Assembly (NCBI GenBank): GCA_964557205.1
Contig: CAZKZI010000001.1
Span: 29,284 to 93,283 of the forward strand
DNA: 64,000 bases
Source of the DNA: an uncultured Lentisphaeraceae bacterium
Lineage (GTDB): Bacteria > Verrucomicrobiota > Kiritimatiellia > RFP12 > UBA1067
Direction: 5' to 3'
Under the pieces are notes generated by a model that was not told the DNA's origin, made no database searches, and saw only the letters and a list, made by a program, of their open reading frames with translations. Positions 3,978 to 55,400 of the stretch are shown here, one piece after another. Position numbers and translations under genes: made by a program. Position 1 is the stretch's first letter. The number at the start of each line of letters is the position of its first letter.

Positions 3978-4004
3978 GGAAATCCGCGGGGAAGGTAAGG
4001 ACGT

Positions 4005-5408: not shown

Positions 5409-5416
5409 GGAGAAAA

Positions 5417-34956: not shown

Positions 34957-34959
34957 ACT

Positions 34960-36045
34960 TTACCTCTTTGCGTGAAGTTCTTCTTTGAGCTTCTGGACCA
35001 AAGTGTCGGGGTCCTGCGACTTCGTGACCAGATCGTCATAGGAAATCAAACCCTTCAGATAAAGATCCATCAGATGCGAATCCAGTGAAATCATGCCGTA
35101 CTTGGCGCCGGTCTGGATATCCGAACTGATCTGGAATGTCTTGTTGTCACGTATGCGAGAACGGATCGACGGGGTCGAGATCATAATCTCGAAAGCCGCC
35201 ACCCGCCCGGGCTTGTCGACTCGCGACAGCAACAACTGCGATATCACCGCAACCAACCCTACGGACAACTGCGTGCGCACCTGTTCCTGCTGGTCGGTCG
35301 GGAACGCGTCAACAATACGGTCCACCGTGGCGGCAGCACCGGTGGTGTGCAATGTCGCGAACACAAGATGGCCGGTTTCAGCCGCCGTGATCGCGGCCTG
35401 CATGGTCTCCAAATCACGCATTTCACCGACCAATATCACATCCGGGTCCTGCCGTAAGGCGCGCCGGATAGCCTCTGCAAAAGTCGGCACGTCATGCCCG
35501 ATCTCCCGTTGCGTCACCACCGCTTTCTTGTGCGGATGATAATACTCGATAGGATCCTCAACCGTTATGATATGCACATCACGCTCTTTGTTGATGATGT
35601 CGATCATGGTGGCCAGCGTGGTCGTCTTGCCGGAACCGGTCGGCCCGGTAACCAGAATCAACCCGCGCGGACGGAAGAGCAATTCCTTGACCTGCTCCGG
35701 CAGACCGATCTGCTCCAAAGTCAGCAGTTTATTGGGAATCTGGCGCAACACAATGCCAAAATTGCCCCTTTCCTTAAACACGCTGACACGGAAACGCGCG
35801 AGGTCTCCAAAAGGTAACGCTAAATCCGCCCCGCCGCACTGCTCTACCTCCAGCCGTTTGTCTTCCTCTAATATAGAGAGCGCCAACGCCTCGGTGTCCT
35901 CCGCTTTCAAAGGCGGGCTGTCCAGCGGCGTCAACGCGCCGTTGATGCGGAGCATCGGCGGCACACCTACGCGTATATGCAGGTCGGACGAACCTTCATC
36001 CACCGTCGCCTGCAACAAGTCTGTCATGTTCATGTCTGTGCTCAT
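34960..36045 (-). CDS. pilT: type IV pilus retraction ATPase PilT
   Basis: 361 aa. [21 protein letters not shown], PilT-type core without N-terminal T2SSE_N domain. Confidence 0.85.
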
Positions 36046-37733: not shown

Positions 37734-37773
37734 TGTCACAGCCTGCCTCCTAAAACATTGTTCATCAGCCCCG

Positions 37774-39210
37774 TTAAGGCCGCGCCAACCTGTCCGCCAC
37801 AAGCTTGCCGACCAGCTTCGGATCTGCCTTGCCCTTGCTCAGTTTCATCACCTGCCCCACCAGAAAACCTGCGGCAGCCTTTTTGCCGGCCAGATAGTCC
37901 TCGGCCGATTTGGGATTCGTAGCGAAAGCACGGTCGATCAAAGCCTTCAGAGCCGCGCTGTCGCTGACCTGCCCTAAGCCACGCTCTTCGACCAGAACCG
38001 CTGGCATGCCGCCGCTCCGAAAAAGCTCCGGCAACAACTCTTTCGCGGTCGGACCGTTTATAACTCCGCCATCTACCAGACACACCAGCTCCGCCAGCGC
38101 GCCCGGCGTCAACGCGCATCCGTCCACAGACAAACCTGTATCGGACAACAACCGCATGACCTCTGTCATAAACCAGTTGGACACGGTCTTGCCCAATCCG
38201 GGCTTGCACGCCCGCACTGCGGCTTCAAAAAAATCGGCGTTCTCTTTAGCGTCCGCCAACACTCCCGCGTCATACGCCGGAATGCCATATTCAGCCATCA
38301 TCCGCTCGCGCCGCGCGCCCGGCGCCTCGGGCAAACGCCCCCGCCATGACTCCACCAACTCTTCGCCAAGCTCCACCGGCACCAGATCAGGCTCCGGAAA
38401 ATACCGGTAGTCGTGCGCGTTCTCCTTGCTGCGCATCGACTGCGTCTCGCCCAGCTCCGGATCCCAGCGCCTCGTCTCCTGCACCAGCGCCACGCCTCCC
38501 TTCACCGCGGCGAGCTGTCTCGCAGTCTCGTACTCCAGCGCCGCGTAAATCCCCTTGAAGGTGTTCATGTTCTTGATCTCCACCTTCGTGCCCAGCTGCT
38601 CCTGACCCTCCGGCCGCACGCTGATGTTAACATCCGACCGCATATTACCCTCTTCAAGATTGCAGTCGCTCACTCCCGCATACACGAGCGTCTGCTTCAA
38701 CGAGTGCAGATAGGCCATGACCTCGTCCGGCGAAGCCATGTCCGGCTCCGATACGATCTCCATCAAGGGTGTCCCGCAACGGTTGAAATCCACTCCGCTG
38801 CAACCGGCGTAATGGTTTATCTTGGCCGCGTCCTCCTCGATATGGATATGATTGATGCTGACCGTCTTCGCCACCTCCCGCGTCTCGATCGTCACGCCGC
38901 CGCCCAGACAGAGAGGATGCGTGTTCTGTGAAATCTGATAGTCTTTGGACATGTCCGGATAAAAGTAGTTCTTGCGGTCGAACGTGCTGTGACGGTTGAT
39001 GCGGCATCCCAGCATAAGACCGGACATGACCGTGAGACGTATCGCCTCGCGGTTTATCACCGGTAGCGCCCCCGGATACCCCAGACACACCGGACAGACG
39101 TTGGTGTTCGGCTTCTCTCCAAACATCAGGCTGCAACCGCAGAACATCTTGGTGCGGGTCTTGAGCTGGACGTGCGTCTCCAGCCCTATGGTGACCAGGT
39201 ACCTGCTCAT
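37774..39210 (-). CDS. gatB: Asp-tRNA(Asn)/Glu-tRNA(Gln) amidotransferase subunit B
   Basis: MSRYLVTIGLETHVQLKTRTKMFCGC... typical GatB. Track ORF N-extended to 39462; ATG at 39210 overlaps gatA stop (ATGA). Confidence 0.9.
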   Translation of the reverse strand: MSRYLVTIGLETHVQLKTRTKMFCGCSLMFGEKPNTNVCPVCLGYPGALPVINREAIRLTVMSGLMLGCRINRHSTFDRKNYFYPDMSKDYQISQNTHPLCLGGGVTIETREVAKTVSINHIHIEEDAAKINHYAGCSGVDFNRCGTPLMEIVSEPDMASPDEVMAYLHSLKQTLVYAGVSDCNLEEGNMRSDVNISVRPEGQEQLGTKVEIKNMNTFKGIYAALEYETARQLAAVKGGVALVQETRRWDPELGETQSMRSKENAHDYRYFPEPDLVPVELGEELVESWRGRLPEAPGARRERMMAEYGIPAYDAGVLADAKENADFFEAAVRACKPGLGKTVSNWFMTEVMRLLSDTGLSVDGCALTPGALAELVCLVDGGVINGPTAKELLPELFRSGGMPAVLVEERGLGQVSDSAALKALIDRAFATNPKSAEDYLAGKKAAAGFLVGQVMKLSKGKADPKLVGKLVADRLARP

Positions 39211-40643
39211 GCCCGCACCTCCCGCTCCACCGCCTGCCCGGCCCTCAACATCGCGCACTCGCCGAACGTCGGCCCGAGTATCTGGAGACCCACCGGCAAC
39301 CCTGCCGCCGTACTCCCGCACGGCACCGCAAGCCCGCAGACGCCGGCCAGATTGGCGGGCACCGTGAAAATGTCGCCCAGATACATCTTGAGCGGATCGT
39401 CGCACGCCTCGCCAATGCGGTAGGCCGCCGTCGGCGCCACCGGCGTCATGATCACGTCGCAATGTTTGAATGCCTCGTCAAAATCCCGTCGTACCAAGGT
39501 CCTGACCTTCTGCGCACGACCGTAATAGGCATCATAATATCCGCTGCTCAAAACGTACGTCCCGAGAATTATGCGCCGCTTGACCTCCATGCCGAACCCC
39601 TCCGCCCGGCTTCTGGCGTACAGGTCAAACACCGAATCGGGATTCTTGGCGCGGTGCCCGTAGCGCACACCGTCAAAACGCGCCAAGTTGGCCGAAGCCT
39701 CGGCCATGGCCACGATGCAGTACACTGCGACCGCGTATTCCGTATGCGGCAGGCTCACCTCGATTATCTCCGCTCCGGCCGCCGCGCACACATCCACGGT
39801 CCCGCGTATACAGGCCATAACCTCAGGATCGCTACCTCCGATGTAATACTCTTCCGGCAACCCGATCTTCATGCCCTTGATACCTCCGCCCAGTGCCGCC
39901 CTGTAGTCCGGCACCGGCGCGTCCAGCGTCGTTCCGTCACGCGGGTCTACCCCTGCCAAAACCTGCAGCAGCATTGCCGCGTCCTCGACCGTGCGGGTTA
40001 TGGGCCCCACCTGATCCAGCGAAGAAGCGAACGCCGTGACACCATAGCGCGAAACGCGCCCGTACGATGGCTTCAACCCCACGCAGCCACAGAACGAGGC
40101 CGGCTGGCGGATCGATCCGCCCGTGTCCGTGCCCAGAGCCGCGATTGCCTCGCCGCCAGCCACCGCCGCCGCAGAGCCTCCGCTCGAACCGCCTGGAACC
40201 CGGCGCAGATCATGCGGATTGCAAGTGACCTTGAAGGCCGACCTCTCGGTCGAAGAACCCATCGCGAACTCGTCCATGTTGGTCCGGCCCGCGAAAACCG
40301 CACCGGCCTGCCGCAGCCGCGCCGATACCGTCGCGTCATACGGCGAGACATAACCCGTCAATATTTTGGATGCGCACGTGCAAGGCTGCCCCTCGACATT
40401 TATCAGATCCTTGATTGCCACTGGAATACCAGACAGTTCGCCGACAACTCCGACAGAACGCGCCGCATCCGATGCCGCCGCCTGCCGCAAAGCGTAATCG
40501 GCGTCAACACTCAGGTAGGCTTTCAACTTGCCGTCCTTGGCGTTGATCGCCTCCAGCACAGCATGCGTCAACTCAACGGACGAGAACTCTTTATGCTTGA
40601 GCCCTTCCGCCGCCGCGCATAGTGTCAATCCCGAAATATCCAT
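39207..40643 (-). CDS. gatA: Glu-tRNA(Gln) amidotransferase subunit A
   Basis: Amidase signature GGSSGGSAAAVAGGEA and GatA-like N-terminus. ATG at 40643 with GGAG RBS preferred over TTG at 40679. Confidence 0.9.
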   Translation of the reverse strand: MDISGLTLCAAAEGLKHKEFSSVELTHAVLEAINAKDGKLKAYLSVDADYALRQAAASDAARSVGVVGELSGIPVAIKDLINVEGQPCTCASKILTGYVSPYDATVSARLRQAGAVFAGRTNMDEFAMGSSTERSAFKVTCNPHDLRRVPGGSSGGSAAAVAGGEAIAALGTDTGGSIRQPASFCGCVGLKPSYGRVSRYGVTAFASSLDQVGPITRTVEDAAMLLQVLAGVDPRDGTTLDAPVPDYRAALGGGIKGMKIGLPEEYYIGGSDPEVMACIRGTVDVCAAAGAEIIEVSLPHTEYAVAVYCIVAMAEASANLARFDGVRYGHRAKNPDSVFDLYARSRAEGFGMEVKRRIILGTYVLSSGYYDAYYGRAQKVRTLVRRDFDEAFKHCDVIMTPVAPTAAYRIGEACDDPLKMYLGDIFTVPANLAGVCGLAVPCGSTAAGLPVGLQILGPTFGECAMLRAGQAVEREVRA

Positions 40644-40665
40644 CTTGCCGACTCCACACCCAGAA

Positions 40666-40732
40666 GCTTGATGCATCAAGCCCCTACTCTTTCACTCTTC
40701 TCTCTTCACTGTAGGGGCTTGATGCATCAAGC
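40666..40732. repeat. 22-bp perfect inverted repeat (itself containing the 16-bp palindrome gcttgatgcatcaagc) with 23-nt pyrimidine-rich loop, between gatC and gatA
   Basis: Left arm gcttgatgcatcaagcccctac (40666-40687). Loop tctttcactcttctctcttcact. Right arm gtaggggcttgatgcatcaagc (40711-40732), exact reverse complement. Loop motif recurs at 47131-47160. Confidence 0.7.
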
Positions 40733-41031: not shown

Positions 41032-41211
41032 CCTGAAAACTCCCGGCCGAACCGACTCCAGCCCTTTTAAACAAATGGTTAAAGTGTACTCCTCTGACAC
41101 CAATGACTCAATTCAAATCTAGCCTGCGCCAGGACAAAAATGCCCGACATAAAACAGAACGGGCACGGCTGACGCCGCGCCCGCCCACAAGATTTTTTCA
41201 AAGACCTCGGC

Positions 41212-41880
41212 TTATTCGCGCCCGTAGATCTCCACTTCCGTGTAGTGGTTCATCTCGTTCGAGGTGTTGCCGCGGCTTGAGAAGCGCACATAGCGCCCCT
41301 TTACGCCGGAAATTGCGAACGGACGACCGTAGTGCTCTTCGATATACTCCTTGTCCTTGCCCTCTCCCAGCTTAGACGAGTTGTCGTGGTCGTTGTTGAA
41401 GACTGTCACAACCCCGTCAATGAAGTCAGGGTCATTCGATATCTGGCAGATCACATCGCGGTAGACACGCGCCTCGCCGTGATAATGCCAGACGCACGCC
41501 GCGTGAATCTCTTTCTCCGCGCCAAGATCGACCTGCACCCACTGGGTGTTGGGTCCGAGTTCTACATACGTGGCGGCATCGTGCTCTTTGTCACCGTCCG
41601 TGATGTACTCAAGCTCGCCGATGATCGGCTCTGGGTCGCTCGATGTCACCTTGCAATCACGCGACAGAACCTTGTCCGCTCCAGCCGGCACATCTACCGG
41701 CGGACGCGGTTTGCCACCCCTGGGCGGCTCAAGATTCGGGGAGCGTATGTCCTTTGGCGTTCCCGTGAACTGCGGCTTAGGCAGTTCGATCTTCAACTGC
41801 ACTTTGCCCGCCTCCTGCGCCCCGGCCACAACGGCCAGTCCGGCCAGCACGGCCAACATCGTCATTCCTGTTTGTTTCAT
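41212..41880 (-). CDS. secreted F5/8 type C (discoidin/galactose-binding-like) domain protein
   Basis: 222 aa. Signal peptide MKQTGMTMLAVLAGLAVVAGA. Pro-rich linker then discoidin-like domain (WVQVDLG...VRFSSRGNTSNEMNHYTEVEIYG). AGGAGAG RBS. Confidence 0.65.
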   Translation of the reverse strand: MKQTGMTMLAVLAGLAVVAGAQEAGKVQLKIELPKPQFTGTPKDIRSPNLEPPRGGKPRPPVDVPAGADKVLSRDCKVTSSDPEPIIGELEYITDGDKEHDAATYVELGPNTQWVQVDLGAEKEIHAACVWHYHGEARVYRDVICQISNDPDFIDGVVTVFNNDHDNSSKLGEGKDKEYIEEHYGRPFAISGVKGRYVRFSSRGNTSNEMNHYTEVEIYGRE

Positions 41881-41911
41881 GTTTCTCTCCTTTGTTGCTT
41901 GGTTCGTTTTT

Positions 41912-41956
41912 TTCAGACCTGTCCAACCTATCAGACCTGTCCGACACGTCAGACCC
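41912..41956. repeat. tandem CAGACCTGTC(C) repeats in 5' leader of the discoidin-domain gene
   Basis: cagacctgtcc at 41914-41924 and 41932-41942, gtcagaccc at 41948-41956. Same decamer family recurs at 45675-45714. Confidence 0.6.
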
Positions 41957-41969
41957 TAAACACCTCATG

Positions 41970-42926
41970 TCAATAAACGGCCGGAAACACTCCGAAAGTG
42001 CGCACCGGACTACGCAGCCGATCCAGCCATTCCGCCTGCCCGCGCGCCACCATCACGCCGCTTCCCTCCAATTCCGAACAAGCCCGCTCTATCTCACCCG
42101 GCGTCATAGCCAGGCTCGACGTCGAAAGCGCGTCCGCAACTGCCGCCGTCGGCGCGTATGCCCATGCGGCGCTGTGTCGCACTGCCGCATAACCTCTGCG
42201 CACGTCCACCACATGCGCGCCTTTGACCTCATACCCGGAACCGCTCAAGGCTCCGCCGGCCAACCTCACCGTTTCAAGTCCGGCACGCTTACGCCAGTCG
42301 CCGCCAACATCAACCGGCCAACCTTCAATTCCGTCCTCCATCGATCCTCGCGCAACAACCGTGCTGGTCCCTCCGTGGATCAGGAAATCTTTAAAATCCC
42401 AGTCACTTTCAAGCATTTCACATGCCATGTCCAAAGCGTAGCCCTTGGCTACCGCGCCGAAATCCATTTCCAGCGGCGCTGCCCGCCCAAGCCGATCCGG
42501 CTTGACCGACACCAACAGATTCTGCGTGTCGATGACCAGCCTGTTCATGCCGCACGCCGCCAACGCGCTCTCGCGCTCCTGCCCGGTCAGCGCCTGCCAG
42601 CGGTGCTTGACCTCGCGCAACGCATCCATCACCGTCCCGACCGTCACATCAAAGCAGCCGCCGGTTGCAGCACAAACCCGAGTCGAAATCAGCAGCAGCT
42701 CCAGCATCTCCGGCGCCACCCGGAAGGTTTCCCCGGGTTTCAGCCGACTGATCAGCGCCACCTCGCTGGCGTCAAGAAACCGACTGCACAACTGTTCAAG
42801 CTTGTCCACCTTCTGAAACACGGCGTGCGCCGCGCTGCCCGCCAACTGCCGGTCGGCGGCAACCACCAGCAATTCAAACACCGTCGACATCGCCTTGTGC
42901 TCAAACCGGCGGACGCGATCTGTCAT
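41970..42926 (-). CDS. apbE: FAD:protein FMN transferase (ApbE family)
   Basis: ApbE motifs AMSTVFELLVV (MGT-like), DFGAVAKGYALD, HGGTSTVVARG. ATG at 42926 (10 nt after cytochrome stop) chosen over track GTG 42953. No obvious signal peptide. Confidence 0.8.
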   Translation of the reverse strand: MTDRVRRFEHKAMSTVFELLVVAADRQLAGSAAHAVFQKVDKLEQLCSRFLDASEVALISRLKPGETFRVAPEMLELLLISTRVCAATGGCFDVTVGTVMDALREVKHRWQALTGQERESALAACGMNRLVIDTQNLLVSVKPDRLGRAAPLEMDFGAVAKGYALDMACEMLESDWDFKDFLIHGGTSTVVARGSMEDGIEGWPVDVGGDWRKRAGLETVRLAGGALSGSGYEVKGAHVVDVRRGYAAVRHSAAWAYAPTAAVADALSTSSLAMTPGEIERACSELEGSGVMVARGQAEWLDRLRSPVRTFGVFPAVY

Positions 42927-42936
42927 AGAACAACTC

Positions 42937-45663
42937 TTATTCCTTGCGGCCACCGGTCAGCAACATCCAGACCGACACGGCAAGGAACGCCATGGAGGAA
43001 CAACGGTGCAACCAAAGCATCGCCACCTGCCACTCCGTGCCAAACCATGTCATCATCGGCGCGACCGCCGAGACAATCACCAAAGCTCCAAGGATCATGG
43101 TGACCATCCACCAGCCGTTGCGCCGCATGTTCGACAGCCTGCGCCCGCCGCGGAACCAGATCAAGGCCACCAGACAGGCAGCGAAAAGACCGCCCGCCAC
43201 CATGTGGAAGACCAGCACATATCCGGTCATCAGATGGAACAGCCAGCCGGCCAGCCCCGAAAGACCCAGATAACCCCCGGCCAGACCCAGCCCGATCGCC
43301 GCCAGCTTGTCCAGAGTCATCATAAGCTTTTCGGACGAACGGCCGTACGGTATCCCGCCCTTCGACAAAACCGCAGGCAAAGCCACCGACACAAACGCCA
43401 CCGAAACCAAGGCGAGCAGCGCGCATACCGCCCACAGGAATATCTTGAAGAACGGGCGCATCAGGAAGGTGGTGCCGAACACCTTGTTGTAGCTGCCGCT
43501 CAATTCCATAAACGCATGCTGTGCCTTGACCAGCGTATGGGATGTCAATAGCGGTCCAGTGGAAGCTACCTGCGTAAAGAAAAACGCGGAGTCAATCGTG
43601 TGGCAATCGTCGCACTTGCTCGGTGCCGCGCCGCGCGCCATGCGCGCGGGCCGCACATCATGCCCAACCGCCCACGACACCGCCGCCGCCGCCGGCTCTT
43701 CGTGCGCGACCAATTTCGCATCCTGACCGAGTTCCCATACCTGACCGTGCGCCACGTAAACCGCGCGCTTTGTTCCAGCCTCACTCAGCCGCTTCAAGCC
43801 CGCCGCCACCATCTCTTCGGTCAGGGTGCAATCGCTGTCGCCCAGTTCTTTGACGTTGCGCACAACATACTCTGACAACAACGGCGAGAAAGTGCCGTTC
43901 TTATACCAGCCCGCCTGCGGTTTGGCGCACTCGACCGGCGAGTTGGTGCTTGTCATGGTGTCGCCGCTGCCGCCGCGGTAGAACAGCTTGCCGCCATACA
44001 CCACCGCACCGTATCCATTGGTCACCGCCATCGGCGACGCATCCAATGTCTGCAAAAGGTCTGACAGCTTCCTCTCTGCCTCATTGCGTGCGACAAGCTG
44101 GTCGTCTTCCATCTTCTCAGTGTCCGCGCCCGGCTCATACGCCGGAATCACGGCGAACAGATTGGTGTCGGTCTTGTAGAACCATCCGTCGGCAGACACT
44201 TTCCCGACGACCGGCTCCGCGACATTGTCCACGTTGCTCTGAAACAGCTTGCCGCCTACCGCCAGCACTGGCTTGCCTGGAATGTTGGCGTTGCTCGCGA
44301 GACCCGCCAGCATCCCCCCGACCTGTTCGCGCACATCCAACAGACCCGAGCAAGCCTGATGCACCGCCTCCGGCAACAGCGGGGTGACCTTGGCCGCGTC
44401 ATCCGAATCCCGCGCGCCCCAGAAAGCCGGCCAAACCATGCGCCGCGGCTCGATCTTGCCTTGGCTGTTGCGCACGAAAACCGGTTCGAGTATGAACGGC
44501 TGAGGCGTCACCCAGCGCGCCCGCCCGTACACACCCATGCGGTTGGCCCGCGAGGTGCGCACCTGCGCCAGTTTGCCCTCTTCCGTCACGCCGGAATGGC
44601 AAGCCGTGCAGCTCAAATTCTCGAAGTGGCTGACCGGTATGCCCACATGGCGCGGCAGCGGAGAGCCATGCCGACCGGCCTTGACCTTGTCCGTGCCCGA
44701 ATGACACCCCGCGCAACTGGCCGTCGCGCGTGTCTTGTCCATACACCCAGTCGTGTCGCCCTCATAGCCCCGCGCGACCGCGTGATCCAACCCGGCCGCA
44801 TGGCAGTCCGTGCAGGACATGCCAGCCCGCAGATGCACGTCGCCATCGATATCCTTATTCGCCATACCGGCCTGCGAGGTCGAATGACAGTTGAGGCAGT
44901 TCTCGGATTTCGGCTTGCCGACCTCCAACACCACACGATTCTTGGCGTCGAACTGACGCTGGTCGTATATCACATGCGGCGGCACGGCATAAATCGCATC
45001 GTCGCGGTTGATGCCCTTCAACAACCCCCAGTAGTCGGCCACGCGAAAGCCCATGCCGCGAATCTCGCCGAGCCCCAGCGCACCGGTCGCTGCCCAGCGG
45101 TAGTTCTGCCGCAGGATCAGCCGCACCCACTCGCTGTGGTCATAAGCCTTGCTGTGGCTGTGGCAGGCAAAACAATTGATCTCGACCGGTCCAGAAACCT
45201 CCCAGCGTGCCTGCGAGCCGCCCTCTGCAAACAGGTCTTCGGGCTCGGCTATGTCGCCGCCGGGCAGATGTCGCCCGAACGCATACACCCACTCCCAGTC
45301 GGTCATTCCCAACTCGCCCGGCTTGTGCGTCCCTGACCAGTCGCGCAGGCTCATCGGTATCTGCGATCCGCTCACCGGATCAACCAGAAACCACGGCTGT
45401 GCCGGACGCCCCGGCTCCTGCGCCGAAGACATGTTGGAATGCCAACCTGACGCGATCGTATCGTAGTCGTGGCACTGACCGCAGGTCGTGCGTGTGCTCA
45501 TAGGCAAGGCGTTCGGTGCGCCGGGCACTATCGGGTCGCCAAATTCGTCATTCAGCGCCAGACGGTGTACCGGCACATTGCGTCCGCCGTTCCAGTGCGA
45601 CTCTACCTTGGCCAGCGCCGCGACCGCCGCAAGCGCCAACATCATTGTCAAAAGTCTTTTCAT
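42937..45663 (-). CDS. multiheme c-type cytochrome (7 CxxCH) fused to C-terminal ~5-TM His-containing membrane (cytochrome b-like) domain; CbcL-like quinol oxidoreductase candidate
   Basis: Signal peptide MKRLLTMMLALAAVAALA. Heme motifs CGQCH, CFACH, CLNCH, CTDCH, CAGCH, CTACH, CDDCH. C-terminal hydrophobic helices with conserved His (WLFHLMTGY, VFHMVAGG, LWLHRCS). Track start 45723 trimmed to ATG 45663. Confidence 0.8.
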   Translation of the reverse strand: MKRLLTMMLALAAVAALAKVESHWNGGRNVPVHRLALNDEFGDPIVPGAPNALPMSTRTTCGQCHDYDTIASGWHSNMSSAQEPGRPAQPWFLVDPVSGSQIPMSLRDWSGTHKPGELGMTDWEWVYAFGRHLPGGDIAEPEDLFAEGGSQARWEVSGPVEINCFACHSHSKAYDHSEWVRLILRQNYRWAATGALGLGEIRGMGFRVADYWGLLKGINRDDAIYAVPPHVIYDQRQFDAKNRVVLEVGKPKSENCLNCHSTSQAGMANKDIDGDVHLRAGMSCTDCHAAGLDHAVARGYEGDTTGCMDKTRATASCAGCHSGTDKVKAGRHGSPLPRHVGIPVSHFENLSCTACHSGVTEEGKLAQVRTSRANRMGVYGRARWVTPQPFILEPVFVRNSQGKIEPRRMVWPAFWGARDSDDAAKVTPLLPEAVHQACSGLLDVREQVGGMLAGLASNANIPGKPVLAVGGKLFQSNVDNVAEPVVGKVSADGWFYKTDTNLFAVIPAYEPGADTEKMEDDQLVARNEAERKLSDLLQTLDASPMAVTNGYGAVVYGGKLFYRGGSGDTMTSTNSPVECAKPQAGWYKNGTFSPLLSEYVVRNVKELGDSDCTLTEEMVAAGLKRLSEAGTKRAVYVAHGQVWELGQDAKLVAHEEPAAAAVSWAVGHDVRPARMARGAAPSKCDDCHTIDSAFFFTQVASTGPLLTSHTLVKAQHAFMELSGSYNKVFGTTFLMRPFFKIFLWAVCALLALVSVAFVSVALPAVLSKGGIPYGRSSEKLMMTLDKLAAIGLGLAGGYLGLSGLAGWLFHLMTGYVLVFHMVAGGLFAACLVALIWFRGGRRLSNMRRNGWWMVTMILGALVIVSAVAPMMTWFGTEWQVAMLWLHRCSSMAFLAVSVWMLLTGGRKE

Positions 45664-45674
45664 CGTTAGTTCCC

Positions 45675-45714
45675 TGTCTGTCAGACCTGTCAGACGCGTC
45701 CGACCTGTCAGACT
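45675..45714. repeat. tandem CAGACCTGTC-family repeats in 5' leader of the multiheme cytochrome gene
   Basis: ctgtctgtcagacctgtcagacgcgtccgacctgtcagac. Same motif family as 41912-41956, same orientation relative to the downstream (minus-strand) gene. Confidence 0.6.
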
Positions 45715-45725
45715 TTTGCGCACTC

Positions 45726-47069
45726 TTACACGTGGAAGTCTTCAGGCTTGAAATGGATCGTCTTGCCCTCGGCCACTGAACGGTTGGCCGCCAACACCGC
45801 CACCGCCGACTCATAAGCCAACTCCGCCGGACAGGTCAGCAATTCGGGCTTGTTGCGACGCACCGCCAGGAAGAAGTTCTCCAGATGCGGCATGTGCGCC
45901 GGCTTGAGCAAGTCAACCGGCAGCGGCCAGCCGTCGGCCTCGGCCGTCACGCGCACGTCCAGCGCCACGTTGGAGGTCACGGCCGCCGCGACCGGTTTTT
46001 TGACCGGCAGCACCAGCCCCTGCTTGGCGAAAATGTCCCAGTTCGGCACGCCGTCACGCACCTCGCGCTGTACCGCGTTGCCGCGCGCCGCAATCTCCGA
46101 GATGGTCAGTGAGCCGTTCTCTCCCATGAACTGCTCGTAAAAGCCGCCGCGGCTGGAGGTCGTCAGCACCTGATAGTAGGCGCGGTTGACAACCCCCTCC
46201 TTGGTCTTGAACTCGTAAATCGTCATAACGTTGTCATTCATCTGGCGGTTGTAGTAATCGTTGCCGCCGATGGCCGTGACCGTTATCGGCGCGCAATCCC
46301 ACACCCAGAAGAAGAGGTCGATCTGATGCGAGCCCAAGTCCACCATCGGGCCGCCGCCGTACTTGTCGAACCAACGCCAGTTGAGAAACTGCTCCATGTT
46401 CTCGTAGCCGTACTTCTGCAAGGTCTCGGTCGGAATGTTCAGCCTTTCGCGCACGGTCAGGAACGGCGCCACCGAACGGTTCCATTGCCCATAGGCGTGA
46501 GTCACGCGGCCTAGCATCTTCGCCTCGCGGATCACGCGGTTGATGGCGTGCATATAGCGCGGATTGGATCGGCGCTGATGCCCGATCTGAAAGATTTTGC
46601 CGGTGCGGCGCTGCCCTAAAACCATCTCCCTGGCCTTCTCCATCCGGTTTGACATCTCTTTTTCGCAATAGACGTTCTTGCCCTTCTCCATACAGTAGAT
46701 GCTGTGCTCGGCATGCATCCAGTCCGGCGTCGCGACGATCACGCAGTCGATGTTCTTGTCTTCCTTGTCCAGCATCTCGCGGTAATCTTCGTACACGTTG
46801 ATATCGTGACCCAGCGCGCGCAGACGTCCACGCGCCATCTTGCGGCGGTAGCCCCAGATGTCACAGACCGCCTTGAAACGGACTCCCGGTATCTTCATCG
46901 CCGCATCGGTCAGAATCTCGCCTTCGGCACCGTACCCGATCACAGCCACGTTCACCTGGTCATCCTTCGGACCGATCGTGTTCTTGTCGTCACTCAGGAT
47001 ATTGAAAGTCGGCAGAATGGCCGCCGCGGCAGCGGTATTCTTGACAAATTGCCTGCGATTGAATTTCAT
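45726..47069 (-). CDS. Gfo/Idh/MocA family NAD(P)-dependent oxidoreductase with twin-arginine (Tat) signal peptide
   Basis: MKFNRRQFVKNTAAAAAILP Tat motif. Rossmann VAVIGYGAEGE. Gfo/Idh/MocA C-terminal domain. ATG 47069 with AGGAAAAGG RBS. Confidence 0.85.
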   Translation of the reverse strand: MKFNRRQFVKNTAAAAAILPTFNILSDDKNTIGPKDDQVNVAVIGYGAEGEILTDAAMKIPGVRFKAVCDIWGYRRKMARGRLRALGHDINVYEDYREMLDKEDKNIDCVIVATPDWMHAEHSIYCMEKGKNVYCEKEMSNRMEKAREMVLGQRRTGKIFQIGHQRRSNPRYMHAINRVIREAKMLGRVTHAYGQWNRSVAPFLTVRERLNIPTETLQKYGYENMEQFLNWRWFDKYGGGPMVDLGSHQIDLFFWVWDCAPITVTAIGGNDYYNRQMNDNVMTIYEFKTKEGVVNRAYYQVLTTSSRGGFYEQFMGENGSLTISEIAARGNAVQREVRDGVPNWDIFAKQGLVLPVKKPVAAAVTSNVALDVRVTAEADGWPLPVDLLKPAHMPHLENFFLAVRRNKPELLTCPAELAYESAVAVLAANRSVAEGKTIHFKPEDFHV

Positions 47070-47130
47070 GTCCATAACCTTTTCCTCTGTTCTATACCTT
47101 GCACTTTCAGCCTCTAGCGAAAGCGAGCAC

Positions 47131-47160
47131 TCTTTCACTTTTTCACTCTTCCCTCTTCAC
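47131..47160. repeat. pyrimidine-rich 30-nt element related to loop of the gatC-gatA palindrome
   Basis: tctttcactttttcactcttccctcttcac shares a 21/22-nt core (TTCACTCTTCyCTCTTCAC) with 40688-40710. Lies between ETF-QO stop and Gfo/Idh/MocA start. Confidence 0.45.
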
Positions 47161-48801
47161 TCACATGCGCGTGTAGCGCGGCCCGTCCCCGCCCTGCGGG
47201 AAGGTCCACTCGATGTTCTGGAACGGGTCCTTGATCTGACACGTCTTGCAGTGCACGCAGTTGGAGAAATCCACATGTATTTGGCCATCCTCCAACCGGT
47301 ACACCTCGGCGGGACAGAACCTTTGACAAGGAGCGCCGTAAAGGTTAATGCATTTTTCACACACTTTACGATCCAAAATTTTGAGGTGGCAAGGCTGATC
47401 CTCGTCATGGATCGTGCCTGACATGAAGACGTCGGTCAAACGGTCGGGCGAGAGCGGGCCGCTTTCGAGTTCCTCCGGCTCCGGCAACCTGCCGCCTTTC
47501 AGCGGCAACATCTCCTCGTGGTCCGGTGCCATCGGCACCTGCCAGAACGGGAACTTGCCGAAGGTCGCCCAGGCGGCACCCGCGCTCATCACACCCAGGA
47601 TCAGATTCGTCGAAAACGGCGCGCGCACGTTCTTGACCCGCTTCAACTGCTTCCAGCCCTCGGTTTTCTTCAGACGCTCACTATAAGGTTTCAAAGCTTC
47701 CAGCGAAAAATCGTCTTTGTTAAAGCACTCCGCCAGGGTCTCGGCCGCCGCCCGCCCGGACTGCGCCGCAATGTGAATGCCCTTGATGCGCAGCGTGTCG
47801 AGCAGACCCGCGCCGTCACCCACGATCAGCACGCCGTCGGCCACCACCTGCGGCACAGAATAATACCCGCCTTCGGGAATGACCTTTGCCCCGTAGGCCA
47901 CCGCCTTGCCGCCCTTGATGTGTTCCGCGATCACCGGATGCGCCTTGAACTTACGGAAAAGCAGGTGCGGGTCAGCCTCCGGCCGCGCATAATCCAAAGC
48001 ATACGCGAAACAGATCATAACCTGCGTCGGTGACACATGATAGACGAAACCGCCGCCGTAGGTGCTCCAGTCTGAAGGATAGCCGAAGGTGTGCGCGATC
48101 TCACCCGCCCGCGACTCGTCGGCCGGCACCTCGATCACCTCTTTTACGCCTACGGCATAAGACTGCGCGCGACTCCCCGCCAGCCCCTTGCGCGCGATCA
48201 GCTTCTCTGTCAGGATTCCGCACCCGCCCTCGCCGAGCACGACGACCTTGGCGTATATCTCCTCGCCGGCCGTGAAGTTCGTTTGGGGCTTGCCGTCACG
48301 GTCCACACCCTTGTCACCGGTGCGCACGCCGATCACGCGCCCCTTGGCGTCCTCGATCAGCTCGACCGCCGCGAACCCGGTGTAGACCTCGGCACCCTCT
48401 TTCTCACAAAGCTGCGCCAAGTACTGCGTCAGCCGGGTCAGCGACCCCACCGGATACCCGTGCGCCTGCATCATCGGCGGTACCCAGGGTATCCTCATCG
48501 CATGCTTGGCGTCGAAAAACATGTGGAACGCCTCTTTGCTCACATGCGCCTCGACCGGCATCTTGCCGATCTCTTCCTCCGTCAGCAAACCGGCAAACCC
48601 GCTCATGTCGATCACCGCGCCGGAAAGCACATGACTGCCGATATTACGCCCCTTGTCAATCACCGTCACACGCGGCACAGACTTGCCCTGAGCCTTCAGC
48701 GTACGCAAAAGCGCCAGCGCCGTTGACAGCGAGGCGACGCCTGCCCCAACGCACAGTATATCGGTTTGTATCGGCTGTTTAGTTTTGTTCGCCATAAACA
48801 C
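47161..48801 (-). CDS. electron-transfer flavoprotein:quinone oxidoreductase (ETF-QO, FixC-like with C-terminal 4Fe-4S ferredoxin domain)
   Basis: 546 aa. FAD motif ILCVGAGVASLSTA. C-terminal CPAEVYRL...CVHCKTCQIKDP iron-sulfur motif typical of ETF-QO. Confidence 0.85.
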   Translation of the reverse strand: MFMANKTKQPIQTDILCVGAGVASLSTALALLRTLKAQGKSVPRVTVIDKGRNIGSHVLSGAVIDMSGFAGLLTEEEIGKMPVEAHVSKEAFHMFFDAKHAMRIPWVPPMMQAHGYPVGSLTRLTQYLAQLCEKEGAEVYTGFAAVELIEDAKGRVIGVRTGDKGVDRDGKPQTNFTAGEEIYAKVVVLGEGGCGILTEKLIARKGLAGSRAQSYAVGVKEVIEVPADESRAGEIAHTFGYPSDWSTYGGGFVYHVSPTQVMICFAYALDYARPEADPHLLFRKFKAHPVIAEHIKGGKAVAYGAKVIPEGGYYSVPQVVADGVLIVGDGAGLLDTLRIKGIHIAAQSGRAAAETLAECFNKDDFSLEALKPYSERLKKTEGWKQLKRVKNVRAPFSTNLILGVMSAGAAWATFGKFPFWQVPMAPDHEEMLPLKGGRLPEPEELESGPLSPDRLTDVFMSGTIHDEDQPCHLKILDRKVCEKCINLYGAPCQRFCPAEVYRLEDGQIHVDFSNCVHCKTCQIKDPFQNIEWTFPQGGDGPRYTRM

Positions 48802-48840
48802 TGCCCCCTAAAAAAATTATGAAATCAGGTTGCCGTCGCC

Positions 48841-50043
48841 TCAACGCCCGTTGCCCTTGTTTGCAAGCGCCTCGATCAGCATCGGCAGCACCTCAAACAG
48901 ATCTCCCACAATTCCCAGATCGGCAATGTTGAAAATCGGAGCGTGCGTATCTGTGTTGACCGCGATGATCGTGTCTGAAGAGCGCATTCCCTCCAGATGC
49001 TGTATCGCGCCCGAGATGCCGAAAGCCAGATAAATCTTCGGACTCACGGTCTTGCCGGTCTGCCCCACCTGATGCGCGGCAGAAATCCAGCCCGCGTCGA
49101 TACAAGCGCGCGAGGCACCCACCACGCCTCCCAGCAGATCCGCCAATTTCTGCAACTGCGCCAGATTCTCGGCCTTCTTCAAGCCGCGCCCGCCAGCAAC
49201 GATGATCTCAGCCTCGGCGATGTTGACGCCGCCAACGTTACGCTCGGCCTTGACAATCCTGCTCCTGGCCGACACCAGCTTCAGCGTCTCGTGCAACATC
49301 TCGCCCTTGCGCCGCGGATCAGGCGTGTTCATCTTAAAGACTTTCGGGCGCACCGTGGCCATCTGCGGCCGATGGTGTGGCGTCATGATCGTGGCCATGA
49401 TGTTGCCGCCGAACGCCGGACGAGTCTGGTGCAGCAGGTGGCTCTCTTTATCAATCGACAGTGCCGTGCAGTCGGCCGTCAGCCCCGTGCGGGCACGCAC
49501 CGCCACCTTCGCGAAAAACGCCCGACCGACTGCCGTGGCGCCGGCCAGGATGACCTCGGGCTTGTATTTGGCGATAAGCTGGTTGAGCGCGTCAGTGTAA
49601 ACGTCTGCCGCGTACTCCGCCAAAGCCGGCTGGTCAACCACATACACCTTGTCGGCTCCCGCCGCGATCAGATAGTTCGCCGACTCTGTTATATTGTGAC
49701 CAAGTATCACTGCCGCCAACTCGCAGCCGCGGTCCTTGGCCAGACGCCGCCCCGTCGAAAGCAGCTCGTAAGCCACCTCCAGAACCTTGCCGTGATGCTG
49801 CTCGGCGAAAACCCAGATGCCCTTGAAAGCCGAAAGATCAACCTTCACCACATTTTCTTCAGCGGTGGACGAGATGGCTTTGAAAGGACACGCTTTGATG
49901 CAGGCGTTGCACGCGCGGCACTCTTCAGGTTTCACCACCGCCAGCTTGCCTTCCATATAAAGAGCATCAAACGGACAGGCGGGTATGCACTTTTTGCAAC
50001 CGCGGCACTTCTCGGGATCAATGTAAATCGGTGCGTCAGCCAT
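48841..50043 (-). CDS. etfA: electron transfer flavoprotein alpha subunit with N-terminal 2x[4Fe-4S] ferredoxin domain
   Basis: CRGCKKCIPACP and CRACNACIKACP ferredoxin motifs followed by EtfA/FixB-like FAD-binding domain (IYLAFGISGAIQHLEGM). Confidence 0.85.
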   Translation of the reverse strand: MADAPIYIDPEKCRGCKKCIPACPFDALYMEGKLAVVKPEECRACNACIKACPFKAISSTAEENVVKVDLSAFKGIWVFAEQHHGKVLEVAYELLSTGRRLAKDRGCELAAVILGHNITESANYLIAAGADKVYVVDQPALAEYAADVYTDALNQLIAKYKPEVILAGATAVGRAFFAKVAVRARTGLTADCTALSIDKESHLLHQTRPAFGGNIMATIMTPHHRPQMATVRPKVFKMNTPDPRRKGEMLHETLKLVSARSRIVKAERNVGGVNIAEAEIIVAGGRGLKKAENLAQLQKLADLLGGVVGASRACIDAGWISAAHQVGQTGKTVSPKIYLAFGISGAIQHLEGMRSSDTIIAVNTDTHAPIFNIADLGIVGDLFEVLPMLIEALANKGNGR

Positions 50044-50046
50044 AAC

Positions 50047-50838
50047 TTACGCCACCCCCTTGTCTTGCAACAGCTTGACTATCGCCTGGACCGCAGCTTC
50101 CGGCGCCTCACGCCCGTCCATCTTCAAGCCCCCCGTCTTCGTCGGCGGCGCGAAAATCTTGACCACCTTGGTCGGCGAACCGTCCAGACCGCACATCTCC
50201 GCCACCGCCCCCACGTCCTTGGCCCCCCATCGCGGGATCTCGGCGCTCTTGGCCGACATCCAGCCGCTCAAACTCGCAAAACGCGGTGTCGAAGCCTCTT
50301 TAACCACCGTCATCACAGCCGGCAGCCGCCCTTCGAGCACGTCCACGCCCTCGTCCATTAGCGTCTCGGCCGTGAAAACCCCGTCGCTGACCTTGACACT
50401 CTTGACATAGGTAACCAGCGGCATGTCCAGAAACTCCGATACCCCCGGACCCACCTGCGCCGTGTCTCCGTCAATCGCCTGCTTACCGAAAAGCACCAGA
50501 TCCGGACGGGCGTTGATCTTTTTGATGGCTTGCGCGATGGCATAGGAGGTCGCCAGCGTGTCCGCCCCTGCAAAAGCGCGATCCGTCAAAAGCACCCCGT
50601 CATCCGCGCCGCGCGCCATAGCCTCGCGCAGCACCACGTCCGCCTGCGGCGGCCCCATGCTGATTACCGTCACACGCGCTCCCGTGACGTCCTTCAGGCG
50701 CAACGCCTCCTCCAGCGCATACTCGTCAAAGGGGTTCATGATACTCTCGACCCCCTCGCGCATCAAAGTATTGGTCTCCGGATTGATGCGCACGTTCGTC
50801 GTGTCCGGAACCTGCTTCACGCAAACAACAATATGCAT
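50047..50838 (-). CDS. etfB: electron transfer flavoprotein beta subunit
   Basis: MHIVVCVKQVPDTTNVRINPETNTLMREGVESIMNPFDEYALEEALRLKD is a canonical EtfB/FixA N-terminus. Confidence 0.85.
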   Translation of the reverse strand: MHIVVCVKQVPDTTNVRINPETNTLMREGVESIMNPFDEYALEEALRLKDVTGARVTVISMGPPQADVVLREAMARGADDGVLLTDRAFAGADTLATSYAIAQAIKKINARPDLVLFGKQAIDGDTAQVGPGVSEFLDMPLVTYVKSVKVSDGVFTAETLMDEGVDVLEGRLPAVMTVVKEASTPRFASLSGWMSAKSAEIPRWGAKDVGAVAEMCGLDGSPTKVVKIFAPPTKTGGLKMDGREAPEAAVQAIVKLLQDKGVA

Positions 50839-51217: not shown

Positions 51218-52363
51218 TTACGGGAGCTTGGTATTGGGTTTAACCGCATCTTGGGGCCAGGGATTCTTAGCTCCAAATACAAGCATCTGCGCACGAGTCT
51301 CGCTCACAAAAAAAGATTCGTCGATTTTTCCATCAACCTCGGTCACCCTGCTGAGATCCAGCTTTAAATGCTTTGCCAGAAAGGGGTAGGCTGCCATCCG
51401 TTTGGAAACGCCGTAATCATGCTTCTCCTCAGCAAAGTGGGCATTCTCAACTTTATCACCCGCATCGTAAAGCTCATAGACCTGCTTCACATAAGGATAT
51501 TCAACCTGCGGGGTGTTCACCGTCCAGTCATGTCCATTCGAAATCATCAGCATTGGACGTGGAGCGGCCATTGCGGCAATTTCAACATTGCTGGTTTTAT
51601 GCGTTTTGCTCCAGTGAATCGGCATACCGCTCTCGCATACACAGCCGCCAAAGAAATGGGCGGATATCTGGCAGACCGGAACACTCACCGCAATGCGAGG
51701 ATCAATCGCAGTCAGAATAAAAGTTTGTGTCCCGCCCCCTGAACAACCGGTCATTCCAATTCGCTTTGGATCGACATCCGGCAGCGTGAGCATAAAGTCC
51801 AGAACCCGAATGCTGTTCCATGTCATCAGCCTAAGAACCTCCGGTGTGTCTGCGTGTGACCAGCCAGCCTCCTTGGAATCGCCATAGCCAACCATGTCAT
51901 AAAGAAATACCGCCGCGCCCATCTTTGCCAGCACCGCGCAACGGCATTGGCGCGAATCTCGGAAACGTCCCCCATGTCCATGAGGGCAGAGAATACCGGC
52001 CAGCGAACCACTGAAATCGGCAGGACGGTAGAGAGTCCCCGTGACATAAAAACCAGGCGAACTTTGAATAGCTACGCTCTCGACAATATATCCGTTATAT
52101 GCACGCTTATTGTAAAACTGTGGCTTGAGATCAGTTCTCGCGGGAAGCTCTGTCAGCCTTGCACCTGCTAAAATGCCTGCCAATAAATTCGCCCGTCGTT
52201 TTTTCCATCCCGCCAAATCCGAGTAGGTGCTTTTAAACTCCGCGAGCTCTTTGACAGCTTCCTCCGGTGTCTGCGCATATCCCACCCGCAACTGAAGTTC
52301 ATCGGCATTGGCAGACACACAGAACAATAGTGATACAAACAAGAGAAACGTAATTTTTTTCAT
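51218..52363 (-). CDS. secreted alpha/beta-hydrolase esterase (acetyl-xylan-esterase/dienelactone-hydrolase-like)
   Basis: Signal peptide [20 protein letters not shown]. Nucleophile elbow TGCSGGG. GHGG oxyanion-like motif. GC content (~50%) lower than surrounding genome. Confidence 0.6.
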
Positions 52364-52492: not shown

Positions 52493-53515
52493 ATGAAAAA
52501 AACATCTTTTGCATTCGTCGTCAGCGGTAGACTCTTGTCCGCCATCATCCTTGCGTTCACCACACTTGAAGGCACCGCCGCGCCATGTTGCGCTAACCCT
52601 TATATCGGCCGATGGGCCTTGACCATCCCCGGCGGAGGCGCGGGCTGGCTCGGCATCGAACAACAAGCCTGCGGCGCGCTCAAAGGCTCGATCCTCTGGG
52701 GCGGCGGTAGCGTCGTGCCCGTGAGCGAAACCAAGCTTGAAGGCAACACGCTGCTGATCGTCCGCAACCACAATCGCAAGAAGGACGGCAAGAGTGTGCA
52801 GTATGTCGAAACCATCACCGCCCGCCTCGATAACAACAAGCTGGCCCTGTCCACCCGCACCGTGGACGAGACCGGCAAACAGATCGGTCAGGCTGACTTC
52901 ACCGGCCAGCGCATTCCCGACCTTCCGTCGCGTCCGGATCTCGCCAAACTAAAGTTCGGTGCACCCGTCAAACTGATCGCCTCCACCGATCTCTCCGGCT
53001 GGAAGGCCATGAACGCGAAAGCCCCCAACTTCTGGTCGGTCGCCGACGGCACCCTCGGCAACCGTGTTCCAAAAGGCCCTGACAACAAAAAACTGCACGG
53101 CACCAACATCCGCACCGAGGCCGAGTTTGAGGATTTCAACCTCAAGACTGAAGTGCGCGTGCCCAAAAACGGCAACAGCGGCATCTACCTGCGCGGCATC
53201 TACGAGGTGCAGGTCGCGGAAACCTTCGGCAAACCTTGCGACTCCCACAACATGGGCGCGCTCTACAGCCGCATCACCCCCTCCAGTGCCGCCGAGAAAC
53301 CGGCCGACGAGTGGCAGACCCTCGACATCACCCTCGCCAACCGCCACCTGACCGTGATCCTAAACAACACCGTCATCATCGACAACCAGCCCGTGCTCGG
53401 CTGTACCGGCGGTGCCATGACCTCTGACGAATTCCGCCCCGGCCCGATCTACCTGCAAGGCGACCACACCAATGTCGACTACCGCAACATGATCCTGACT
53501 CCGATCGTCAAATAA
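52493..53515 (+). CDS. DUF1080 (3-keto-disaccharide hydrolase / LamG-like jelly-roll) domain protein, secreted
   Basis: Signal peptide. Duplicated jelly-roll with GIYLRGIYEVQVAETFGK and IYLQGDHTNVDYRNMIL motifs typical of DUF1080. ATG 52493 chosen. Confidence 0.65.
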   Translation: MKKTSFAFVVSGRLLSAIILAFTTLEGTAAPCCANPYIGRWALTIPGGGAGWLGIEQQACGALKGSILWGGGSVVPVSETKLEGNTLLIVRNHNRKKDGKSVQYVETITARLDNNKLALSTRTVDETGKQIGQADFTGQRIPDLPSRPDLAKLKFGAPVKLIASTDLSGWKAMNAKAPNFWSVADGTLGNRVPKGPDNKKLHGTNIRTEAEFEDFNLKTEVRVPKNGNSGIYLRGIYEVQVAETFGKPCDSHNMGALYSRITPSSAAEKPADEWQTLDITLANRHLTVILNNTVIIDNQPVLGCTGGAMTSDEFRPGPIYLQGDHTNVDYRNMILTPIVK

Positions 53516-55034: not shown

Positions 55035-55400
55035 GGTATGCAACCTTTCCGGGGCAACCTCGATACGCCCGGTAGTTTTCAGACAGGGAAGAGCGCGAAG
55101 AACGGCCCTTTATGCCTGTACGTTACCTTTTCCCCACCTGCACCTGCAGACAGTCCAAAACTAATCCTTTAAAGCGCCAAGATTATCGCCTTTGCCAATT
55201 ACCGGCAAGTGTAATTAATTGGATGTGGGACAAAAAAGTGACTTTACCTTGTAAAGCGGTTCATGCGGCCTTCTTACGAAGAGTCGCCCATCTTTTTTAT
55301 GACTGGTAATGCCTCAGTTATTGGCAGGTAATTACTTCTAATTCCGTAGATCAATAATTATGTGATGAAAAAAATAAGGCTCCTCGGCAGAATTTGTGGG

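Follow-up and report, generated by a model that had tools for sequence, protein, structure and literature searches.

How periplasmic dehydrogenases of the Gfo/Idh/MocA family are re-oxidised without free NAD has been stated explicitly as an open question (PMC8121099; 10.1101/2024.03.25.586180). A gene cluster of an uncultured Lentisphaeraceae bacterium raises this question in a specific form. We analysed 64,000 nucleotides of contig CAZKZI010000001.1 (positions 29,284 to 93,283; the window hereafter), in which seven open reading frames (ORFs), all on the minus strand within 41212-50838, include a Gfo/Idh/MocA dehydrogenase (Gfo) with a twin-arginine translocation (Tat) signal and, immediately after it, a membrane-anchored cytochrome with seven c-type haem motifs. 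Does this cytochrome take up the electrons of the dehydrogenase, and where would they go? Judged from sequence, synteny and predicted structure, on which all functional readings given here are based, it is in our view an even call that the conserved unit is a periplasmic dehydrogenase:menaquinone oxidoreductase of four or five genes, probably a glycoside 3-dehydrogenase that is re-oxidised via the cytochrome.

The sequence-only reading of this DNA had described seven co-directional, tightly spaced genes, and ORF, Pfam and NCBIfam checks returned the same row in the same order: EtfB and EtfA, the subunits of an electron-transferring flavoprotein (Etf, ETF); an ETF:quinone oxidoreductase (ETF-QO); Gfo; the cytochrome; an ApbE-family flavin transferase; and a secreted discoidin-like protein, the last a marginal assignment. 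The intergenic gaps, in order of transcription, are 3, 39, 85, 62, 10 and 89 bp. Directly 3' of the discoidin-like gene lies a terminator-like hairpin (41157-41186, minus strand), with a 13-pair stem that holds 10 G-C pairs and is followed by TGTTTTATGT. A hairpin scan of the cluster found no comparable site inside the gene row, the ETF-QO/Gfo junction included. Sigma-70 promoter matches in the cluster showed no excess over the shuffled expectation, and a search for riboswitches and other known RNAs in and around it returned none, giving just chance matches of miRNA models to the gatC-gatA hairpin.

Relatives of the cytochrome were found in 496 genomes of a collection that holds one genome each for 185,579 species. 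The 79 best cytochrome loci were fetched and their ORFs searched with the seven window proteins; the counts that follow take as denominator the loci with enough sequence on the relevant side. A Gfo orthologue sat immediately upstream of the cytochrome in 71 of 74 loci, ApbE lay downstream of it in 65 of 67, and a discoidin-like gene followed downstream in 53 of 60. The core gene order recurred in about 70 loci of other genomes, and in independently called loci neighbouring genes were 2-4 bp apart or overlapped by 4 bp. The conserved unit is Gfo and cytochrome (plus a membrane subunit), ApbE and the discoidin-like protein, a block that is strongly co-conserved.

Loci of the module come mainly from Kiritimatiellia and Verrucomicrobiota; a few metagenome-assembled genomes (MAGs) carry the label Aminicenantes or Acidobacteriota. 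Although names given to MAGs, 'Akkermansia' or 'Eubacteriales' for example, call for caution, the presence of the module is clear in Verrucomicrobiota and in Pontiellaceae records titled as strains, not MAGs (L064 and L073). Relatives of Pontiella (L064, L071, L073 and L075) have it, and Pontiella makes menaquinones (PMC7356697).

Several loci depart from the common arrangement. Three gut or rumen MAGs (L055, L056 and L079) carry the cytochrome without an adjacent Gfo, L056 also lacking ApbE and the discoidin-like gene; decay or rewiring of the module may account for these cases. Genes of the PD-(D/E)XK family (PF13366), probably selfish or unrelated, stand between cytochrome and ApbE in L052 (12706-13503), L067 (11505-12317) and L073 (11519-12232). 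In L002, from Verrucomicrobia, the module is preceded by two extra Gfo/Idh/MocA paralogues of the GFO_IDH_MocA_C2 type and a 671-aa HEAT-repeat protein (3712-8587), and runs of extra Gfo paralogues also occur in L047-L050.

The Tat-signal dehydrogenase and its probable sugar link

The Gfo gene (45726-47075, minus strand) likely starts with the ATG at 47075, giving MDMKFNRRQFVK, and encodes a candidate glycoside or sugar 3-dehydrogenase in which the Pfam domains PF01408 (58 bits), PF22725 and PF02894 all score above their cutoffs. Its Tat motif, FNRRQFVK, is followed by a hydrophobic stretch, and the RRxF core is kept in 71 Gfo orthologues, so the Tat signal named by the sequence-only reading is a conserved feature of the group. 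The orthologues also conserve the NAD-binding GxGxxG, with an acidic residue after the second strand, and Gfo is expected to be exported in folded form with a tightly bound NAD(P). Among solved structures, the C-glycoside 3-oxidase DgpA (7xr9, E 1e-18), the glucuronide-3-dehydrogenase 8tdi and inositol dehydrogenases come nearest to it. A GH109-type glycosidase was considered and rejected, the GH109 C-terminal domain having no match in the Pfam search of this protein.

Gfo shares its Tat signal, Rossmann fold and Gfo C-terminal domains with the enzymes BT2158 and AL3 (PMC8121099; 10.1101/2024.03.25.586180) and with the glucose-fructose oxidoreductase of Zymomonas. The likeness extends to the periplasmic location, the expected tightly bound NAD(P) and the occasional neighbours of the DUF1080 and xylose-isomerase-like families. 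Members of these two families are 3-keto-glycoside 1,2-lyases and hydratases of an alternative glycoside pathway (10.1101/2024.03.25.586180; PMC8121099). In the Kiritimatiellales loci L052, L063, L065 and L075, xylose-isomerase-like genes (secreted TIM barrels) and/or DUF1080 genes sit between cytochrome and ApbE, the DUF1080 members being inside the module in L063 and L075. These insertions lend support to the carbohydrate oxidation that had been proposed for the locus and suggest, short of proof, a role of Gfo in the C3 oxidation of glycosides. The window has a DUF1080 gene of its own, for a secreted protein of the 3-keto-glycoside lyase/hydratase family (52493-53515, plus strand; PF06439, E 1e-33, with a signal peptide). 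It lies 1.6 kb upstream of etfB on the opposite strand, outside the operon, and its product is possibly linked in function to the module.

In the known enzymes a second sugar substrate serves to recycle NAD, whereas the window Gfo is tied to a dedicated haem protein, ApbE and a CBM32-like protein. For Tat-exported BT2158 the electron acceptor has been named as unknown (PMC8121099); Tat-exported Gfo-type enzymes have also been described that need no partner protein, since the reduction of 3-ketoglucose regenerates their NAD (10.1101/2024.03.25.586180). The latter precedent, together with the absence of a flavin or other hydride acceptor among the components found in the module, would fit a self-contained, redox-neutral Gfo that uses NAD as a transient cofactor, the cytochrome, ApbE and discoidin-like protein then serving a separate electron-transfer function from within the same operon. 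We consider this very unlikely. The gene stands directly upstream of the cytochrome across phyla at the frequency given above, a few bases away in independently called loci and often abutting or overlapping in the ORF calls made here; its orthologues are highly conserved and make up a close-knit group confined to the module context; and the missing GH109 C-terminal domain also speaks against such a role.

The seven-haem cytochrome and its membrane domain

The cytochrome gene (42937-45663, minus strand, ATG at 45663) encodes the 908-aa protein that had been predicted to hold a signal peptide, seven CxxCH motifs and about five C-terminal helices. A motif count and an AlphaFold model confirmed this composition, with exactly seven motifs. 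Residues 1-384 (44512-45663) comprise the signal peptide and haems 1-6, with CxxCH at residues 61, 164, 256, 284, 317 and 352. Residues 385-665 (43669-44511) form a haem-free periplasmic middle domain of no known fold. Residues 666-908 (42937-43668) hold haem 7 (C684xxCH), an anchor helix (transmembrane helix 1, TM1) and a four-helix cytochrome-b-like bundle (TM2-5), the five helices falling at residues 723-902 in the model. The seven motifs are invariant across 39 aligned homologues, and every complete homologue of the 79 fetched loci has exactly seven.

Confidence of the AlphaFold model was good for the middle domain and the C-terminal helices and low over the haem-rich first 385 residues, the usual effect of haems not being modelled. 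Remodelled in a fragment of residues 385-700, the middle domain (about 280 residues) reached a pLDDT of 87 and a pTM of 0.81; it had no solved structural relative, and no recognisable fold, FMN_bind included, matched it. A Foldseek search of the PDB with the full model returned a best match of E 0.24. Pfam Cytochrome_C7 and c3_2 cover residues 293-380 (numbering of the 928-aa ORF), NCBIfam holds no model for this cytochrome, and its named homologues belong to Kiritimatiellae MAGs in which the source labels read 'hypothetical' or 'cytochrome c3 family'. These homologues make a glycan-degrading Kiritimatiellae bacterium the most likely source of the window. Going by these searches, the cytochrome has no demonstrable membership of any curated family. 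Catalytic multihaem reductases (NrfA, octahaem tetrathionate reductase and HmcA) were set aside as candidates, since the likeness is confined to the level of haem motifs and stays far under the cutoffs.

The membrane domain is fused to the cytochrome in Kiritimatiellia (five helices); in loci of the Verrucomicrobia and Aminicenantes types only the first helix stays with the cytochrome, and a separate gene of 160-226 aa encodes the remaining four. A profile search of a large protein database collected 31 relatives of the domain. PF01292 was the top Pfam family in all eight of the first relatives scanned, and 14 of the 32 members (the window domain and its relatives) matched it, at best with E 4e-7 and in one case just above the gathering score. 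Each of the other families was matched by at most three of the 32. The folds of FdnI and HyaC were the best structural matches to the domain; the family profile searched against PDB sequences gave nothing at E<=10. The domain is probably a divergent, remote member of the prokaryotic cytochrome b561/FdnI/HyaC superfamily, and the earlier description of a multihaem c domain joined to a b-type membrane domain is supported by the PF01292 matches among family members.

How many haems the bundle might hold is a separate matter. Conservation in the membrane domain is limited to S802-G803, H820, G824, M870, H886 and R887. In alignments of the fused and split forms the only invariant histidines are H820 and H886, H810 being variable, and the two therefore allow one bis-His haem b at most. 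A dihaem b domain, as the sequence-only reading had proposed by analogy with CbcL, is rejected on this ground as unsupported. The positions expected to supply haem ligands on the cytoplasmic side carry no histidine, neither in the first bundle helix nor 14 residues past H886. The conserved residues of the bundle would all lie in its periplasmic half, a placement that follows from the helix boundaries of the model with the cytochrome domain assumed to be in the periplasm. For this reason a redox loop of the Fdn type is probably not operating.

In Geobacter, CbcL is reportedly an inner-membrane quinol oxidoreductase in which a multihaem c domain is fused to a HydC/FdnI-type dihaem cytochrome b. 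At the level of domain architecture, both proteins join a periplasmic multihaem c domain and a four-helix membrane domain of the FdnI/HyaC/b561 kind in one polypeptide, and both are predicted to exchange electrons with menaquinone. The analogy thus stands for the architecture and probably for the superfamily, but not for the two b haems. The window cytochrome has seven c haems where CbcL is said to have nine, and it differs further in its 280-residue haem-free domain of unknown fold, in keeping two invariant membrane histidines, enough for one haem site at most, and in a membrane domain that does not reach PF01292. The gene context, with Gfo, ApbE and the discoidin-like gene, is entirely other, and electrons probably flow the opposite way, so as to reduce quinone.

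In overall logic the predicted complex resembles FdnGHI, HyaABC and LacABC, in which a periplasmic oxidising subunit passes electrons through a transfer subunit to a membrane cytochrome b and on to quinone; LacABC is a FAD-type glucoside 3-dehydrogenase with a cytochrome c subunit (PMC8121099). The catalytic subunit here is an NAD(P)-type Gfo instead of a Mo, NiFe or FAD enzyme. Seven c-type haems would serve as the wire in place of Fe-S clusters, and the cytoplasmic-side haem b ligands are absent, which makes a transmembrane loop of the Fdn type unlikely.

Putative flavin transfer, the Etf genes and the probable direction of electron flow

The ApbE gene (41970-42926, minus strand) likely starts with the ATG at 42926 and encodes about 318 aa with a Pfam ApbE match (PF02424) of 119 bits. 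The FAD- and Mg-binding motifs FDVTVG, AKGYA, SGSGYE, HVVD and ADALST align to the solved ApbEs 1vrm, 4xgw and 2o18. The assignment as a flavin mononucleotide (FMN) transferase stands with its catalytic motifs intact; a signal peptide and a canonical target motif, by contrast, are missing. The window ORF has at most 21 residues ahead of the first conserved strand, none of them hydrophobic, and in 71 loci the protein begins 10-16 aa ahead of that strand, which argues for a cytoplasmic ApbE in every locus. One related genome encodes a further ApbE, which does carry an ordinary lipoprotein signal. Cytosolic ApbE has a precedent in Klebsiella pneumoniae (PMC12052999). A large survey of flavinylation clusters required signal peptides (PMC8238504) and would therefore have missed this cluster. 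With the enzymes of the NQR, RNF, NosR and PplA systems treated in that survey, the window protein has in common its ApbE fold and its motifs for catalysis and Mg binding.

A signal-less ApbE would act on a protein that folds in the cytoplasm, and the most economical candidate is the Tat-exported Gfo. Alternatively, ApbE could pass through Tat together with Gfo, or its target may be the product of a gene elsewhere. The cytoplasmic loops of the membrane domain are unlikely targets, the consensus having no conserved Ser/Thr.

The last gene of the row (41212-41880, minus strand, 222 aa) encodes the secreted discoidin/CBM32-like protein. This identification is marginal: PF22633 scores 29.8 bits against a cutoff of 27.8, whereas PF00754 stays below its own (26.8 against 28.2), and the match to the AlyQ CBM32 module 7d29 is weak (E 0.006). 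The protein is highly conserved in 62 loci and has a conserved proline-rich N-terminal stretch that may resemble a docking peptide. The gene is duplicated or triplicated in tandem in L001 (14014-15468), L015, L016, L019, L029, L031, L039 and L043; the window has one copy.

From these features we infer the substrate, the haem b, which way the electrons flow, what ApbE flavinylates and how the Etf proteins are coupled, and they suggest the following mechanism. Gfo would fold in the cytoplasm with NAD(P) and be exported by Tat. In the periplasm it would oxidise a carbohydrate, most likely a glycoside at C3, with the CBM32-like protein as the subunit that binds the substrate or serves for docking. 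The dedicated heptahaem cytochrome c, anchored in the inner membrane, would then re-oxidise the bound NAD(P)H, and its degenerate FdnI/b561-type bundle may provide, towards the periplasm, a single site for haem b or quinone from which electrons pass to menaquinone. The signal-less ApbE may install a covalent FMN, likeliest on Gfo as the Tat substrate, that turns a two-electron hydride transfer into one-electron steps. In the clade of the window, the upstream ferredoxin-fused EtfAB and ETF-QO would tie the same menaquinone pool to NADH and ferredoxin.

Several points weigh against this assignment. Its functional claims draw on sequence and gene order. The best NCBIfam match of Gfo, the glycoside 3-dehydrogenase BT_2158_fam (NF058561), reaches 81 bits against an equivalog cutoff of 750, so the protein is no orthologue of BT2158, and only about six of the 79 loci have 3-keto-sugar lyase genes nearby. 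Periplasmic Gfo-type enzymes can function partner-free, the published 3-keto pathway and GH109 glycosidases being examples. The window membrane domain, like the split subunit of the Verrucomicrobia locus L002, matched no Pfam family at E<=10, and hhalign of the membrane profile against E. coli FdnI gave a probability of 1.2%, which is not significant and leaves the His ligands unmapped. Unlike the surveyed ApbE systems (PMC8238504), the module and its neighbours gave no Pfam match to FMN_bind, DUF2271 or DUF3570, and the motif D-x-x-[ST]-G-A-[ST] was absent, across the 79 loci, from every ORF of 80 aa or more that might serve as a target; the sole strict match lay in L056, in an ORF unrelated to the module. 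These searches therefore yielded no carrier for the transfer from bound NAD(P)H to haem.

The direction of flow was considered in terms of redox potential. NAD(P)H stands at about -320 mV and menaquinone at -74 mV, so that NAD(P)H can reduce menaquinone and the reverse is not favoured. Because of these textbook potentials, and because of the published need to re-oxidise such enzymes, we place the flow from Gfo into menaquinone, and favour such input over electron export in the manner of CbcL, which the sequence-only reading had entertained. The opposite course would make the module a menaquinol-oxidising branch, in which ETF-QO fills the menaquinol pool from NADH and the electrons leave via the b-like domain and the seven haems for a periplasmic acceptor; either Gfo might reduce this acceptor (a keto-sugar, for instance), or the cytochrome itself might do so at a catalytic haem. 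The c/b architecture does resemble that of reportedly quinol-oxidising cytochromes such as CbcL, and the haem motifs are weakly like those of NrfA and the octahaem reductases, although far under the family thresholds. Where the Etf genes stand directly upstream in the same orientation, a menaquinone-reducing donor beside a sink would complete a chain; however, most module loci have no Etf genes, and menaquinol at its potential is a poor donor for ketone/alcohol or NAD couples. We regard this reversal as unlikely.

The Etf trio itself begins the row. The gene etfB (50047-50838, minus strand, 263 aa) encodes the small subunit of a bifurcating-type Etf (Pfam ETF, E 6e-47); it scores 253 bits with CarD 6fah, 236 with A. 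fermentans EtfB 4kpu and 224 with T. maritima 7koe_A, against 114 with human ETF, and by these scores groups with the bifurcating rather than the non-bifurcating human type. The product of etfA (48841-50043, minus strand, 400 aa) has at its N-terminus a 2x[4Fe-4S] ferredoxin domain (residues 6-64, matched by Pfam Fer4 families), then the Pfam domains ETF and ETF_alpha, and has an AcrA-like NCBIfam match of 362 bits. ETF-QO (47161-48801, minus strand, 546 aa) is a FixC+FixX-like fusion carrying ETFQO_UQ-bd and Fer4_ETF_QO. It matches pig ETF-QO 2gmh over its full length with 350 bits, FixC 7koe_C with 115 bits, and also 7koe_D. EtfABCX-type complexes oxidise NADH and reduce menaquinone and ferredoxin (PMC10765413). 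With the Fix/EtfABCX enzymes, such as that of Thermotoga maritima (7koe; PMC10765413), the trio shares a bifurcating-type EtfB and a quinone reductase with a 4Fe-4S domain. It differs from them in that the quinone reductase is a single ETF-QO-like polypeptide, nearer mitochondrial ETF-QO than FixC, and in the extra N-terminal ferredoxin domain of EtfA, as in Etfs of the CarE type.

The sequence-only reading had treated the Etf genes as part of one module, a view that does not hold for the family as a whole: the EtfB-EtfA-ETF-QO trio stood directly upstream in 16 of the 54 loci with enough upstream sequence. It is therefore a clade-specific addition outside the conserved core. The trio occurred only where the cytochrome was at least about 55% identical to that of the window, single Etf genes reached down to about 47%, and none was found below. 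This distribution, the 85-bp gap between ETF-QO and Gfo, and the completeness of the module in Etf-less loci would all be expected if the Etf/ETF-QO genes and the Gfo-cytochrome module were two unrelated units that became neighbours by chance in this lineage. Such a chance pairing is quite possible, if on balance somewhat doubtful. Against it, relatives keep the arrangement down to about 55-60% cytochrome identity, no terminator-like site marks the ETF-QO/Gfo junction although the row ends in a strong one, and the quinone pool is the predicted point of action for either unit. The trio is probably in the same transcript as the core. It may feed the same menaquinone pool, or run in reverse and return menaquinol electrons to NAD.

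A bolder proposal, which we consider distinctly unlikely, joins all seven genes into one complete circuit, by which the cytoplasm would gain reducing power from glycans in the periplasm. Cytoplasmic ApbE would flavinylate Gfo before export, a first for Tat cargo and for Gfo enzymes; the covalent FMN would split the hydride of NAD(P)H; the electrons would run through seven c haems and one b haem to menaquinone; and the ferredoxin-fused EtfAB with ETF-QO would confurcate menaquinol and reduced ferredoxin to NADH. If true, a fermentative anaerobe would harvest electrons from sugars oxidised outside its cytoplasm.

Surroundings of the cluster and implications

Downstream of the cluster lie gatCAB and then type II/IV secretion ATPases; upstream of it are a CE15-like esterase (51218-52363, minus strand), the DUF1080 gene and a GH29-type fucosidase (53571-55043, minus strand). 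The secretion ATPase genes are three in tandem (33238-37802, minus strand), two PilB/GspE-like ones with MshEN flanking a shorter PilT-like one. A 386-aa ORF at 39462-40622 (plus strand), antisense to gatA (39207-40679, minus strand) and with no Pfam match, is almost certainly spurious. Elsewhere in the window, a sialic-acid-type utilisation cluster (273-7928, plus strand) comprises a BNR sialidase-like protein, a protein with an FGE-sulfatase domain, a DHDPS/NanA-like lyase and a sodium:solute symporter, along with two proteins that have no Pfam match (2541-3977 and 4005-5408). Cumulative GC skew peaks near 14 kb (about 13000-14500), where gene orientation flips from plus to minus between yidC/lactonase and secY; the peak may be a turning point of replicon strand bias or reflect transcription-linked skew.

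A literature search on Gfo/Idh/MocA proteins with a multihaem cytochrome, with ApbE or in Kiritimatiellales found no description of the module. Three of its features are unusual: its periplasmic dehydrogenase of the NAD type has a haem protein as partner, its ApbE lacks both a signal and a recognisable target, and its cytochrome contains a large domain of unknown fold. NAD-bound periplasmic dehydrogenases of the Gfo family are abundant in Bacteroidota and in the Planctomycetes-Verrucomicrobia-Chlamydiae (PVC) superphylum, where they start the 3-keto route of glycoside breakdown. To the question of how they are re-oxidised the module offers a concrete candidate answer, a dedicated membrane-anchored heptahaem c/b cytochrome that is co-inherited with such an enzyme in hundreds of species. 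If this is true, it would define a new class of quinone-reducing dehydrogenase complex, pose the new question of which protein a signal-less ApbE modifies, and link glycan degradation directly to the menaquinone pool in presumed fermenters.

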